This document shows positions 8,939 through 18,786 of a stretch of DNA of 35,822 nucleotides, one piece after another (position 1 is the stretch's first letter; each line of letters starts with the position of its first letter). The position numbers were made by a program, and so were the translations under genes. Location: the sequence record SRR22947725_3976. One strand, written 5' to 3'. The notes under the pieces were generated by a model, which was given only the letters and a program-made list of their open reading frames with translations, was not told the origin of the DNA and searched no databases.

Positions 8939-11900
8939 ATGAGAATAATAGAATTTAAATTATCTAAAACTCTAACAATCTTTTATCTATTCTTATCCCT
9001 ATTATTCTCTAACATGGCCTTAAGTTCAGAAAAAAATACTAATTATATTAATGAATTAAACACTATTGAATCTTATTATTGGATTGCACTAGAAGAAAAA
9101 GGTAACCACAAACTTTTTTCAAAAGCTTTAAACAAACTTAATGCTTTAGAAAATAAAATTAAAAAAATTACACCTGCAAGTAGTATTCTTCTTAAAATTA
9201 GAGGTTTAAAGGAAGATATTAGACAACAATTAGATATGTCTTCTGATACTTTTTTTGGTATTTTCCCCCTCTCAAGATTTTTTAATAATAACTTTCTTAC
9301 AAATTCTATTGCTTTTGGAACATATGAGTTATTTGACGATTATAATGTGATGTCATCTAATCAAGGTGTCGAAAATTTGTTAAAAACCTTGAAAGAAAAA
9401 GAAAGAAAACAATTAGACGTTATATTTATATCAAACCCTCTTGATTACGCATTAGAGAATGAAGCTTTATACCTTTTTAATCAAAGCCCTCAATTTTTTG
9501 TTCATAACCAAAAAGAAGTAAACGATGCCTTTGTTAAAAATAACTTAAATGAAAACGATATTTCTGACTTTAAATCAGGAAATTTAAATGAAAAGCATTT
9601 GCAATCATTTTTTAAATCTTTTGATACAAACGATCTACTTTTAGTTAATATTGAAAAAAATTCTTCTTTTTTAAAAGATGCTTTTTATGTAATAAAAGGG
9701 TCATATTTCAAGCCTGATCAATTAAAACCGATTAAAATTTATAGAAATATGGGTTTTTCCAGAGATAGGACTAACTTATTAAATCCTATAATATTGTTAA
9801 ATTTTTCATTCTTACTTGTTGCTATCATTCTCGGTTTCATACTATATCGCAAAAAGACAAATTATAACCCAGATAAAAACTTACAATTTCTATCTATTTT
9901 ATCATTAAGTTTCATCATATCTAGATTGTCTCCATATATTGTTATACCTGGTTTAAATTCTATTATTTCAATGCCACCACCAGAAACCTTGGCAATTTTA
10001 AGTTTTTGGTATGTAATAATCATATCCATAATTTTTTTATTCTTACCATTTATTTTTATACATGGACTAAAATTAAAATTTAAAAAATCTGACTATTTTC
10101 AATTGATTTTTAGTAACTCGGGAATAATTGGTATCGTTTTTTCTTTTGGTATAATTTCTTGGTTTATCACTTCGTTTGTCATTTACGAAGGCAGTTTTCA
10201 AAATGCTACTCAGTTTATAATTCCGATTATTATTTTTTCACTAAACTTCTATGAATTTGGGAAAAATATAGATAAATCAGAAATAAAATTTTCAACTTAT
10301 TTTATTGTATTGTTAAGTATTTTATTTTTTATGAGCCTTGTTTCATTAAATTATACATACATTTACATCACATCTTTTTTATTACTAGTTAATTATGCCC
10401 TATCAAAGTTAATGTTTAATAAAAACCAAAGTTCATTTCCATCAAACAAAACAAATAATAAATTAATTAAATGGATACACCCTCATTTAAAGAAAGAAAA
10501 CTTATTAGAAATTAAAAAAACTACTGGGATAAAATTTACTTTTTTAAAAACTATAGATGAAACAAGTGGAAGATTATTAATTAAACAATCTTTAAAAGAC
10601 AATTTCTTGTTTGTAGAGATTGAATGCCACAATGAAAATTCATCTTTTGATTTAATCAATCAACTACTTGAAAAAAAATTTGATGGTACAACTAATCAGT
10701 CTATAGAAGATACAATAGATAGCATTACTAATTTTATACCATTTAGTAGTTTATTAAACATGGCAGTAAACCAATCAAATCAAGAAACCTCCTTGGATCA
10801 TGTACTTGAGGCGGCTAGTTTAGAATTTTTTGATAAACTTAATAACCAAAAGAATGTTTGTATATTAATATCTGGTTTAAATTATTTAGATAAAGAGAGT
10901 TTCAAGTGGTTACGCCAAATTAAAAATTATAATACCAACCTAAATATTAATTTTATTTTTATAGGAACTAAATTATTATCAAACGTAAATTTTAATAATA
11001 CTCTTACACTTGATGATTTGGTCCCTGAAGATTTAATTAATTTCTTGAAACAGGAACTAAATTCTGACCCTATCCTAGCTGAAAAAATAATAGAATATTT
11101 AAATGAAACAGACGATAAAACCACTTTAAACGATATAGAGCTTATTTTTCAAAACTTAAAAAGAAGTAATTCAATTTATTTAGATACTAAATGGCATCTA
11201 GATATAAATAAAAAAATTGAAGATAATATTTTGAAAGATGAAATGATTTCATTAGAAAATACTATAACTGAAAGTTTACAAAACTTTCCTGAATATAAAA
11301 CTTTTCTTATTATATCAGCATGTTTAGGTTATCAATTTAATTTAAAAGTTCTGTCAAATGCTACTGGTTTAAGCTTAATTGAAACAGCTAAAACTATTGA
11401 AGATATAAGTATAAAAACTGGAATAATAGAAAACACTCCTAACGCAAATAATAAAATTAAATTTAGAAATAGGTCTACCTTAGTGACCTTGAATAGTATT
11501 TTTTCTTTAAATGAGACATTAGATAATATTCCTTTAATTCAAAGAACATGTTGTTTTAACGCTGCCATTGCTATTAAAAATTATCACAAAGGATATTCTA
11601 ATGAAAATCAACGAATATTTAATTTATTTGAAAAAAGTGGAACTAATAATTTAACATACACCTTAGATGCTGGTTTAAAGTTAAGTTCAAATTTATGTGT
11701 TTTAAACCAATTTGATAAAGCAAACATAATTATTGAAAAATGTTTGAATTATTTAAAACATTATAATTCAGTAAATAAAAATGATCTTTTTAATCAATTG
11801 TTAATTGAGAAATATTTTATTGAGTTAGAAAAATCGTTTTATAACGGTACAATGATTGAAAAAGAATATCTGTCCAATATTGCCGAAAAATGGCTTGAAT

Positions 11901-17436: not shown

Positions 17437-18786
17437 ATGGTTATTAATCTTTTAAAATCTTGGATTAAGGAAAATGAAAATAAAATAAATAATCTATTTT
17501 TGTACTCTTTAAAGAACCCAATGAAAATTACTGAAATGTACAAAAACATTGACGCAAATGGAACTGGTCAAAGCTATAAAGATTTAAAAAAATTCTTAAA
17601 TTCGTCTCACTCAGATATTGACCTTACAAGCATTGAGGTACAAATAGACACATCAGAAAGTGAAGGAATTATTTTTTTTGAGTACAAATATCATGAAAAT
17701 GAGAGTTATTTTTATAGTCTAGGCAAAAAGCAAGTTAAGAATTTTTCAAAAGAAGAATTTTTTAAATATCTCGATACTGGGTTAAAACAGGCATCAGAAA
17801 AAGATAATTGGGTAGAAACTTTTGGACATCGTTACGTAACTATGCTCTCAAAAAATGAATTAAATCTACTAAATAAACATGAAATTAATTTGTGGCAAAA
17901 AAGAGTTAAACCAAATTTTAAAAAGGAATATGAAAAGTTCCAATCTCAACCAACTGAATGGAATGAGGGTATATCAAAACTTCTAGACTTATTATTAAAA
18001 GATCAATTAAAAAGTCTTCAATCATACGAACCCCTAACAGATATTACTTCTGCCCGTTTTGAAAAAATAAAACTAAAAAGCTTTATCTGCGAAGCGCCAG
18101 AAATTGAACAAAGAATACCTCAAGAAAAACGAACAAGTGTTCCAGATATATGCGTTTACATTTATGCAATAATTAATGTTCCTGAAAATGATAGTTTAGA
18201 CACAATTACCACAATGCAAATCAATGACTGGATAACAAACAATATAAAATTAATTGATATAAATTCTATCTTTGAATTTCTTACAAGCTTTCCTTTTAAC
18301 TTTGTAAAGAATAATTTTTGCATTATAACAACTGAGATCATTGGGATGAACAAAGATGACTTTGACAAATATGAAAATAAAAAAAATTTAATTAGAGAAA
18401 ATATAAAAATTAAAGATGATAAAATATTTCCCATTGATAAACTTAAGAAGAAAAACTTTGTTGAACTACTAAAAAAGAAGAATGTAACAAAAATAAAATT
18501 TCCTAAAAAAGATTATTATTTTGAGGACTTGCCTATTGATTTTGTTATGAAGTGCAACAAACTTGTTTGTGTTTTACTAAATATATTATCAAAGAATAAT
18601 TTAAATTATGATTTTGAACTAATAAAGCCTGAATTCTATTTAATAGATTTATGTAGCGACTTTACTCAATATAAGTCACTTGTAAAATCTGTAAAAGTAA
18701 ATTTTGATATTTTAAATGAAGTGCCTGAAGAAAATTTCTTATCTATGAAGGACGTATATTATTATATTTACAATCATTTAATCTAA
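17437..18786 (+). CDS. Hypothetical protein (449 aa, soluble)
   Basis: Long uninterrupted ORF with AGGT upstream, divergent from the NLR-like gene; no motif recognised. Confidence 0.7.
   Translation: MVINLLKSWIKENENKINNLFLYSLKNPMKITEMYKNIDANGTGQSYKDLKKFLNSSHSDIDLTSIEVQIDTSESEGIIFFEYKYHENESYFYSLGKKQVKNFSKEEFFKYLDTGLKQASEKDNWVETFGHRYVTMLSKNELNLLNKHEINLWQKRVKPNFKKEYEKFQSQPTEWNEGISKLLDLLLKDQLKSLQSYEPLTDITSARFEKIKLKSFICEAPEIEQRIPQEKRTSVPDICVYIYAIINVPENDSLDTITTMQINDWITNNIKLIDINSIFEFLTSFPFNFVKNNFCIITTEIIGMNKDDFDKYENKKNLIRENIKIKDDKIFPIDKLKKKNFVELLKKKNVTKIKFPKKDYYFEDLPIDFVMKCNKLVCVLLNILSKNNLNYDFELIKPEFYLIDLCSDFTQYKSLVKSVKVNFDILNEVPEENFLSMKDVYYYIYNHLI

Follow-up and report, generated by a model that had tools for sequence, protein, structure and literature searches.

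A candidate conflict module of SAR116-clade alphaproteobacteria: linked genes for a predicted membrane STAND-TPR pseudo-NTPase, a phage-related kinase and a predicted SAM-HEPN-NACHT-TPR protein

Genes of the locus and their predicted products

Sequence record SRR22947725_3976 was analysed over a stretch of 35,822 nt (hereafter the window), which derives from a marine alphaproteobacterium of the SAR116 clade. The four genes considered here occupy positions 8939 to 18786 of the window and encode a membrane protein related to STAND NTPases, a small kinase, a large NLR-like protein and a protein of 449 aa, as follows.

8939-12757, plus strand: predicted membrane STAND-TPR pseudo-NTPase, 1272 aa (open reading frame (ORF) and translation; full-length homology to AAA_16-bearing relatives)
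12769-13167, plus strand: small P-loop kinase, 132 aa (ORF; AAA_33)
13352-17353, minus strand: predicted SAM-HEPN-beta domain-NACHT-TPR, NLR-like protein, 1333 aa (Pfam, alignment and AlphaFold2 (AF2) model)
17437-18786, plus strand: 449-aa protein (ORF; lineage-restricted)

The gene for the 1272-aa protein (hereafter the pseudo-STAND) stops 11 nt before the kinase start (12758-12768). This pair is convergent with the gene for the 1333-aa protein (hereafter the HEPN-NACHT protein), which is separated from the 449-aa gene by a divergent gap of 83 nt (17354-17436). The ORF coordinates and both spacings had been given in the original prediction made for this DNA and proved exact on re-check.

The following features were assigned in the pseudo-STAND.

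8969-9787, plus strand: N-terminal hydrophobic segment (residues 11-29) and predicted extracytoplasmic domain (residues 30-283), from hydropathy and per-domain identity
9788-10414, plus strand: about five to six hydrophobic, predicted transmembrane (TM) segments (residues 284-492), from a Kyte-Doolittle scan
10496-11098, plus strand: degenerate nucleotide-binding domain, from alignment with the relative P0027
10535-10570, plus strand: FTFLKTIDETSG at the Walker A position, from alignment with P0027
10856-10891, plus strand: VCILISGLNYLD at the Walker B position, from alignment with P0027
12143-12538, plus strand: TPR-like C-terminal repeats including an invariant DKPGLARSYG motif, from a profile match to LGN/Pins TPR structures

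The only Pfam match of the pseudo-STAND is a sub-threshold one to AAA_22 (14.6 bits, cut-off 27). Its homologues comprise 22 clusters (42-97% identity) and one 1306-aa protein, P0027, which is 24% identical to the pseudo-STAND over 94% of its length (E 3e-63) and contains AAA_16 and nSTAND3 domains with the Walker A sequence GPAGRGKS and the Walker B stretch LYFDDIQWID. P0027 and three further metagenome relatives score 42-51 bits for AAA_16 (cut-off 32.6) and more weakly, below the cut-off, for TPR_12. The end-to-end alignment with these AAA_16-scoring relatives assigns the central domain of the 1272-aa protein to the AAA_16-type STAND homologues. However, the motifs of an active STAND are lacking: at the aligned Walker A and Walker B positions the window protein and its clade have FTFLKTIDETSG (FTFLKTIDETS) and ILISGLNYLD, respectively, and the same replacements occur in all seven aligned clade members, down to 41% identity. 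Because the Walker motifs are replaced and the replacement is itself conserved, the 1272-aa protein is predicted to be a pseudo-NTPase and not an active STAND member.

Comparison with the nearest genome (G001, a single contig of 2.2 Mb, 98% complete) gave a ratio of nonsynonymous to synonymous substitution rates (dN/dS) of 0.17 for the whole pseudo-STAND gene, 0.07 for the outer domain and 0.28 for the dead nucleotide-binding region. The overall value and the retained replacements therefore point to a maintained pseudo-NTPase. The same two observations ruled out a decaying pseudogene.

Hydropathy analysis revealed one N-terminal hydrophobic segment, a domain of ~250 residues and then ~5-6 hydrophobic segments between residues 284 and 470; a LAILSFW motif in the TM block is conserved across the family alignment. 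Hydropathy and family alignment thus bear out the description of this protein in the original prediction as a TM-anchored STAND-TPR protein with eroded catalytic motifs. The outer domain is the best conserved domain of the protein (87% down to 30% identity across the family), and it belongs to no Pfam family and gave no useful Atlas match (scores ≤0.78). Residues 1069-1200 matched the TPRs of LGN/Pins in a profile search (E 7e-8). No DNA-binding or enzymatic output domain was detected by Pfam, and the family was not found in viral contigs.

In the HEPN-NACHT protein, the features are as follows.

17174-17353, minus strand: SAM domain (residues 1-60), Pfam SAM_1 E 4e-8 and model matches
16631-17110, minus strand: HEPN-like helical domain (residues 82-241), invariant motif and AF2 model
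16730-16747, minus strand: R203-N204-x3-H208, invariant in the alignment
16361-16630, minus strand: beta-rich domain (residues 242-331) between HEPN and NACHT, secondary structure of the model and conserved LWP and YVR motifs
15734-16204, minus strand: NACHT NTPase core, Pfam and motifs
16103-16126, minus strand: Walker A motif GPAGIGKS (residues 410-417)
15830-15850, minus strand: Walker B motif VLDGLDE (residues 502-508)
13355-14923, minus strand: variable TPR_12/TPR_10 region (residues ~811-1333), Pfam TPR_12 E 1e-52

Pfam matches of this protein are SAM_1, NACHT (32.8 bits, cut-off 26.7), NPHP3_N (38.2 bits, cut-off 24.8), AAA_16 and TPR_12/TPR_10. It belongs to the NACHT family, as it passes the Pfam cut-off and has an intact Walker A motif and D[GAS]hDE signature; GPAGIGKS and VLDGLDE are the intact motifs expected of this gene from the original prediction. 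Residues 1-60 superpose on the SAM domains of tankyrase and BICC1 (target-normalised TM-score 0.8-0.85; Z 9.7-9.9).

Residues 75-385, which have no Pfam match, were searched alone and retrieved 609 representative clusters at E≤0.001 (136 at E≤1e-30), in which the module is nearly always N-terminal in proteins of 1000-1800 aa. All 22 family members aligned have R203, N204 and H208 (LRNRLAHGGG), and the RNxxxH pattern recurs in the divergent relatives described below (RNKLVH in L017, RNTYVH in L029 and RNQLAH in G805); residues 82-241 therefore contain the Rx4-6H motif of the HEPN superfamily. In the AF2 model of residues 1-385 (mean pLDDT 87.5), residues 82-241 were matched by VIA-align to 8xdj (Z 8.7), 1wwp (Z 8.3), 2hsb (Z 7.9), 5yep (Z 7.5), Csm6 (8jbc; Z 7.6) and Roquin (Z 9.6), values in a range common for helical bundles; the matches cover 108-127 residues (Z 7.5-9.6). 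The same residues gave no match in Foldseek and none to a Pfam HEPN model. The beta-rich domain is conserved together with the HEPN domain across the family, and dN/dS of the N-terminal part is 0.10. As the fold match alone is not decisive, the invariant RNxxxH motif was taken together with it, and on this basis we read the architecture of the 1333-aa protein as SAM-HEPN-beta domain-NACHT-TPR. The original prediction had connected the kinase with HEPN cleavage, and the invariant motif, taken with the fold match, points to a HEPN-type domain in the facing gene.

The kinase has three motifs.

12808-12831, plus strand: Walker A motif GLPGSGKT
12865-12882, plus strand: EAD(35)QYF motif
13078-13095, plus strand: ENRH, lid motif

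The kinase scores 45.7 bits for AAA_33 (cut-off 27) with GLPGSGKT intact, and has sub-threshold NCBIfam matches to PSTK, PNK-3'Pase and bacterial Pnkp. Its scores for TIGR04075 (21.7 bits, cut-off 750) and TIGR01663 (23.1 bits, cut-off 502.8) do not reach equivalog level; both are full-length multidomain models, to which only the kinase part aligns. A single-sequence query found no relative in the PDB, and a profile of ten members gave 4gp7/4jst as the best match (E 0.003), with T4 polynucleotide kinase only at E 0.73. The entries 4gp7/4jst are labelled 'Metallophosphoesterase' in the PDB table; we take them to be the kinase domain of Clostridium thermocellum Pnkp. The invariant D35 aligns with the Asp of their SSDF segment, and the window protein combines the AAA_33 fold, the Walker A motif and this Asp. 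The kinase gene has a dN/dS of 0.08.

Relatives of the kinase abound in phages. Viral contigs contain 529 of them, the best 80 of which have lengths of 126-193 aa and full-length identities of 40-51%. A tblastn search retrieved 615 GenBank phage records with the kinase (614 of them covering ≥80% of the query), some of which are annotated as polynucleotide kinase and several of which adjoin an 'RNA ligase'. Neighbourhoods were counted for the best 80 of the 529 viral relatives. Within three genes of the kinase, a calcineurin-type metallophosphoesterase occurs in 29/80, an RNA ligase (PF09511 or PF09414 type) in 28/80, either of the two in 41/80 and both in 16/80; in 56/80 loci, one of three repair-gene classes lies within ~8 kb. 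In Pseudomonas phage EM a metallophosphatase, rnlA and the kinase form one stretch. The ten SAR116 kinases form one clade among the viral sequences (SH-aLRT 99 in a quick unrooted tree). Because the phage neighbours are RNA ligase and metallophosphatase genes, the window kinase, described in the original prediction as polynucleotide-kinase-like, is assigned by sequence to the 5'-kinase family of the phage RNA heal-and-seal cassettes. The association with ligase and phosphatase holds for the phage relatives and not for the window kinase itself, as Pfam detected neither a phosphatase nor a ligase in the module of the window.

The 449-aa protein has no match in Pfam, NCBIfam or PADLOC. It had been described as an orphan across an 83-nt gap; the gap is as described, but the protein is not a singleton, since 76 homologues were found, those covering most of its length being 41-93% identical. 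Its AF2 model has a pLDDT of 58, Atlas scores were ≤0.81, and the best VIA-align match (Z 7.3) involved low-confidence parts. The gene (dN/dS 0.25) is confined to the lineage and is linked to the module in 5 of the 6 arrangements seen; a homologue is present in three of the four genus-level genomes carrying the module, and in the fourth, G008, a MORN-caspase gene occupies its place.

Linkage of the genes in related genomes and metagenomes

Full-length pseudo-STAND genes were found in 4 of 61 relatives (G001, G008, G018 and G031), with a remnant in a fifth (G011); counted over the genus, they are present in 4 of the 37 genomes searched. The same four of the 61 relatives contain the kinase, which has one further weak match (E 3e-6), and the first 820 residues of the HEPN-NACHT protein. 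In the family, 5 of 66 genomes have the kinase, the fifth being G086, a member of another genus, in which the pseudo-STAND is on the same contig. When one genome from each of 185,579 species was searched by pattern, the hits were again these five full-length pseudo-STAND loci and the remnant. The pseudo-STAND, kinase and HEPN-NACHT genes co-occur in the same five species genomes, in the same island and in two SAR116 genera. The trio is absent from the rest of the 66 family genomes in which the kinase was sought. Two NLR-like genes, one of them without a P-loop motif, are thus linked in a conserved manner, as in paired NLRs.

The four genus-level genomes keep the order of an 80-aa ORF, pseudo-STAND, kinase and convergent HEPN-NACHT gene. 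In the second genus (locus L017), the pseudo-STAND is 42% identical to that of the window, and the kinase gene (66%) is found 5 kb from it, in tail-to-tail orientation with a homologue of the 449-aa gene (36%). The facing operon of L017 encodes proteins of 542 aa, 732 aa and 448 aa, the last a TPR protein. The 732-aa protein matches the N-terminal profile of the HEPN-NACHT family (hhalign 96%, E 2e-9) and has RNKLVH and a GQGKT P-loop, and the 542-aa protein has an RNLFSH motif and no significant profile match. The Walker-less clade is further represented on 11 metagenome contigs. The kinase is directly downstream in all seven that reach past the pseudo-STAND stop, and a convergent ORF resembling the 1333-aa gene follows in all five that reach further, two of these showing TPR-level similarity only (31-33%) at contig ends. 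Locus L040 has a different upstream neighbourhood and retains the kinase.

Linkage is therefore kept across rearrangements and into a second genus. Independent occurrence of the three genes, which would have spoken against a functional link, was not found at the level of orthologues. Chance accumulation in a hypervariable island had been considered equally possible, and is now less likely than allowed, because the pseudo-STAND, kinase and HEPN-NACHT genes share the same five species genomes.

The N-terminal 800 residues of the HEPN-NACHT protein are 93% identical to G001 and 85% to G031, and the TPR C-terminus is 31% and 51% identical, respectively; in G018 and G008 the match ends at residue 809. 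Hence, the TPR sensor region is swapped between strains.

More distant members of the membrane-STAND family were found at eight metagenome loci, six of which keep a canonical Walker A motif. In L029, the HEPN-NACHT profile hits a 1394-aa protein (E 8e-12) with RNTYVH and the P-loop SGVGKS, the gene of which is on the same strand, two genes after the membrane STAND. In L027 it hits a 574-aa protein (E 8e-6), and this locus also encodes a 498-aa RNxxxH-TPR protein. A GmrSD-type gene lies upstream of the membrane STAND in L026. The HEPN-NACHT module is rare near the host, occurring in 1/401 genomes drawn evenly at class level and 2/401 at phylum level. Separately, a calcineurin-type phosphoesterase gene follows the HEPN-NACHT gene of L029 (9865-11265), and ORFs of 380-386 aa located after the membrane gene in L027 (10060-11202) and L029 (4197-5357) are 69% identical, with a sub-threshold DHH match in L027.

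We tentatively regard the locus as a conserved four-gene accessory conflict module of SAR116-clade alphaproteobacteria, most likely antiviral, in which the gene products would have coupled roles. A number of observations weigh against this reading. All close examples come from one bacterial family and share ancestry; therefore, the counts of co-occurrence overstate independence. The two large genes of the window converge, so that no single transcript can cover both. A genome of another family, G805 (92% complete, 350 contigs), which is the second of the two phylum-level hits, has a relative of the SAM-HEPN-NACHT protein, 36% identical over 782 aa, with the alignment starting within the SAM region and with RNQLAH and GPPGMGKS present. 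The membrane-STAND and kinase profiles found nothing in G805, whereas both gave matches in the G001 and G086 controls, and the executor can therefore exist without these partners. At two further membrane-STAND loci, no HEPN-family gene is present in the available downstream sequence (2.6 kb in L025 and 3.5 kb in L030). A kinase homologue is absent from all eight distant membrane-STAND loci, the Walker-intact ones included, so that the kinase is no general companion of HEPN; moreover, most of its family is from phages, where pseudo-STAND and HEPN-NACHT genes do not accompany it. In the best PDB match (SSDFCRG) an Arg stands three residues after the catalytic Asp, and the window kinase (EADQYFE) does not keep it. 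Finally, PADLOC models match none of the four genes beyond P-loop level.

It is rather unlikely that the locus combines independent, co-inherited systems, with the HEPN-NACHT-TPR protein being a complete single-gene defence and the pseudo-STAND and kinase a separate defence or signalling unit in one hypervariable island. The convergence of the large genes and the G805 relative lacking both partners favour such an arrangement, as do the wide occurrence of the N-terminal module among the 609 clusters and the exchange of the TPR sensor independently of the membrane gene. The same applies to the presence in the island of MORN-caspase and TPR-trypsin genes and, in G001, of duplicated HEPN-NACHT genes with an FtsK/WXG100/MORN insert. 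However, linkage persists through at least three arrangements and into the second genus, where the HEPN-NACHT protein is only ~12-20% identical. Two distant membrane-STAND loci with intact Walker motifs have HEPN-family genes in their vicinity as well, and few other genomes of the class and phylum samples contain the HEPN-NACHT family.

Possible roles of the proteins and comparison with known systems

For the coupled module, we infer the activities and interactions of all four proteins from the observed architectures, motif states, selection, linkage and phage context. The HEPN-NACHT protein would be a self-contained NLR-like executor, the strain-variable TPR array of which binds a trigger. 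Its NACHT domain, aided by the N-terminal SAM domain, would oligomerise in an NTP-dependent manner and bring the HEPN domains together. These would then cut RNA to give 5'-OH and 2',3'-cyclic phosphate ends, as HEPN cleavage does, and growth or phage replication would be stopped. The pseudo-STAND probably descends from active membrane AAA_16-type STAND-TPR receptors that tend to adjoin HEPN-family genes, and would have lost NTP binding in the SAR116 branch while purifying selection continued. It would most likely serve at the envelope, as a sensor or scaffold giving input to the HEPN-NACHT protein or holding it in check. The 449-aa protein may be a lineage-specific partner.

The kinase may have been recruited in the same SAR116 branch and would phosphorylate the 5'-OH ends produced by HEPN cleavage. 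RtcB requires a 5'-OH end, and RNase E senses a 5'-monophosphate. Neither RtcB nor a PF09414 ligase was found in the 98%-complete G001 genome, with positive controls giving matches; a search there for an Rnl1-type ligase was uninformative, its own control having given no match. Since RtcB and PF09414 ligase were not found in the nearest complete genome, marking of the ends is favoured over repair, and the full repair role first suggested for the kinase is unlikely. Phosphorylation may instead commit the fragments to 5'-monophosphate-dependent decay or render them unusable for RtcB-type resealing, as in the logic of Las1-Grc3 considered below.

Alternatively, the kinase may be a protective or recovery antidote, which starts the repair of host RNAs cut by a leaky or spent HEPN domain, in the manner of phage Pnkp on tRNA, so that the RNase response could be reversed. 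In favour of this, its phage relatives belong to heal-and-seal cassettes, it is under strong purifying selection (dN/dS 0.08), and the distant L029 locus ends with a calcineurin-type phosphoesterase gene, which would supply the other end-healing activity. This is nonetheless improbable, given that RtcB and PF09414 ligase were not found in G001, the window module without phosphatase or ligase and the L029 phosphoesterase, which has no BLAST similarity to the phage cassette phosphoesterase.

A bolder form of the coupled module, doubtful at present, would be a membrane-spanning sensor-helper NLR pair. The NTPase-dead multi-TM STAND would sense an envelope event (phage adsorption or injection) and relay it to the SAM-HEPN-NACHT protein, and the kinase, captured from phage RNA-repair cassettes, would phosphorylate the cleavage ends and so be a host 'anti-repair' factor that blocks RtcB-type resealing and feeds decay. 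An enzyme of phage counter-defence would in this way have been converted to host use.

In the paired NLRs of plants and animals (RGA5/RGA4, RRS1/RPS4, the NRC network and NAIP/NLRC4), one member has a dispensable or dead P-loop and the other is the executor. Those of plants are encoded by head-to-head genes and form proven hetero-complexes. The SAR116 locus may share the asymmetry. A HEPN partner is present at all SAR116 loci and at the two distant Walker-intact loci with enough flanking sequence, and a HEPN-NACHT relative can occur alone. The SAR116 locus differs in having convergent genes and a candidate sensor that is an integral membrane protein.

Phage T4 counters the PrrC anticodon nuclease with Pnkp and Rnl1. 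The 132-aa kinase resembles such heal-and-seal enzymes in its 40-51% identity with the kinases of the split kinase, metallophosphatase and RNA ligase cassettes of large phages and in the retention of the Walker A motif, the catalytic Asp position and ENRH. Unlike them, it is host-encoded, is accompanied by neither phosphatase nor ligase and lies in a nuclease-encoding locus rather than countering a nuclease. As a locus that would pair a nuclease with a kinase and lacks a ligase, it probably finds its best functional analogy in Las1-Grc3 of eukaryotic pre-rRNA processing, in which a HEPN endonuclease acts with a 5'-OH kinase and phosphorylation commits the cut RNA onward (PMC5900568; cited in PMC3710099). 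Grc3, however, is a Clp1-type kinase, whereas the kinase studied here is AAA_33/T4-Pnk-like and is encoded in a separate operon from the HEPN gene.

The effector-NACHT-repeat layout of the 1333-aa protein, with its Walker A motif and D[GAS]hDE Walker B motif, is similar to that of bNACHT proteins, and HEPN is listed among the NACHT-associated effectors (10.1101/2022.07.19.500537). Degenerate Walker motifs are mentioned for one Avs protein, KpAvs8 (PMC13581612). However, PADLOC (2023) models match the 1333-aa protein at the P-loop only, and a SAM domain, a linked pseudo-STAND, a kinase and a 449-aa gene were not found described in the available text of those two sources.

Fusions of HEPN with a STAND NTPase and TPRs have been catalogued in bacteria and predicted to be RNase effectors of a conflict system (PMC3710099, Anantharaman et al. 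2013). Npun_F6454, MED222_16016 and Desac_1927 are named in that catalogue, and the 609-cluster family may be one of those listed; it has no Pfam HEPN match.

Inactive STANDs are known from the iSTAND/iSTAND2 ternary systems with vWA-MoxR (Kaur et al. 2020, PMC7159879). An operon of two genes that pairs an active with an eroded STAND, the latter carrying GT4 or HEPN, has also been reported (Kaur et al. 2021, PMC8195603). The SAR116 locus is similar to the former, as described there, in keeping a dead STAND beside an active NTPase in a predicted conflict system, some iSTAND systems being located at the membrane, and to the latter in having HEPN as the effector. It is not an iSTAND system, since neither vWA nor MoxR was detected in the 24 window proteins scanned, the remaining ORFs all being ≤172 aa. 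In contrast to these systems, the dead STAND is of AAA_16 type, multi-TM and without an effector, HEPN is on the active NACHT protein, and two STAND families, convergent genes and an attached polynucleotide kinase are involved.

No paper was found that joins a membrane STAND, a HEPN-NACHT protein and a polynucleotide kinase, though supplementary tables of STAND surveys may list the families. The layout differs from those of the known dead STAND modules in five ways, having a multi-TM dead STAND, no vWA-MoxR, HEPN on the active NACHT partner, convergent genes and a phage-type kinase. Sensor-helper receptor pairs and networks have so far been established in plants and animals, and the dead STAND modules so far predicted in bacteria all have other layouts. 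The locus would represent a compact, conserved candidate receptor pair of an abundant marine bacterium, in which the candidate sensor is an integral membrane protein and a member of a phage RNA-repair kinase family is placed inside a host HEPN RNase locus. If the kinase acts on HEPN-generated ends, the nuclease-kinase logic of Las1-Grc3 would be extended to antiviral defence, with the host using one half of the phage repair chemistry. The size of all four genes suits testing in a laboratory host.

Composition and variation of the surrounding island

Relative to G001, the synonymous substitution rate (dS) is 0.13-0.38 for the four module genes, 0.14 and 0.18 for the neighbouring GST and TPR genes and 0.03-0.04 further out (MatE and TPR-trypsin). 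In comparison with G031 and G018, the third-position identity of the island genes is similar to that of core genes; thus, conservation of the N-terminal module reflects constraint and not recent transfer.

A further alternative is that the pseudo-STAND and kinase form a non-immune module for envelope signalling or RNA turnover, to which the NLR-like neighbour is irrelevant. AAA_16-TPR proteins are often regulators, and within the pseudo-STAND conservation is highest in the outer domain and TM block, as expected for a housekeeping sensor. However, the pseudo-STAND is accessory (full-length in 4/37 genus genomes, with a remnant in a fifth), lies in the region of raised dS and has no DNA-binding or enzymatic output domain, and its relatives adjoin GmrSD-type and HEPN genes, making a non-immune role very improbable.

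GC content is ~23-30% across the window, apart from a stretch of ~40% at 15-17 kb. This stretch (15001-17000) falls inside one gene, in the SAM-HEPN-NACHT part, and its surroundings have 23-28%. GC content at third codon positions (GC3) is only 0.28 in the stretch, and the excess is mostly at first and second positions; therefore, the extra GC mainly reflects amino-acid composition. Recent horizontal transfer as the source of the rise was ruled out by this GC3 value and by a third-position identity to other genomes of 66-67%, compared with 56-71% for the neighbours.

No tRNA genes or Rfam families were found in the window, and a scan of this AT-rich sequence for promoters and terminators performed no better than with shuffled sequences. 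Logan contigs from four metatranscriptomic runs of one study contain 45-68% of the sampled words of 8939-18786, a hint of its transcription in the sea.

The 80-aa ORF directly upstream of the pseudo-STAND (8637-8879) is conserved in all related loci and in the genome that lacks the island, which makes it a core gene flanking the module rather than a member of it. In that genome, G011 (locus L012, contig C13), a remnant of the pseudo-STAND N-terminus (~1556-1825; 48% identity to residues 11-99, two stop codons) lies between the homologue of the 80-aa ORF and an EamA transporter gene. G011 thus marks a lineage that lost the island.

In G001 (L006, 6534-19566) there are two HEPN-NACHT-TPR paralogues with different TPR ends. 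The genes between them encode a 957-aa FtsK/SpoIIIE ATPase, a WXG100 protein of 95 aa and a 730-aa protein with MORN repeats.

Beyond the 449-aa gene, at positions 18904-27098, lie genes for a TPR protein of 432 aa and a TPR-trypsin protein (20207-21757), followed by those for a protein of 301 aa, an LPP20 lipoprotein and a MORN-caspase protein of 860 aa (24516-27098). The TPR, 301-aa and LPP20 genes have homologues near the pseudo-STAND, at other positions, in both L017 and L040, in the latter together with TPR-trypsin, and this set may be part of the same island or system.

The variable region is bracketed by small inverted paralogues at 6113-6493 (plus strand) and 29516-29902 (minus strand), which are 46% identical over 107 aa. 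Homologues of both flank the island in G018 and G031 too, and the pair may serve as recombination anchors.

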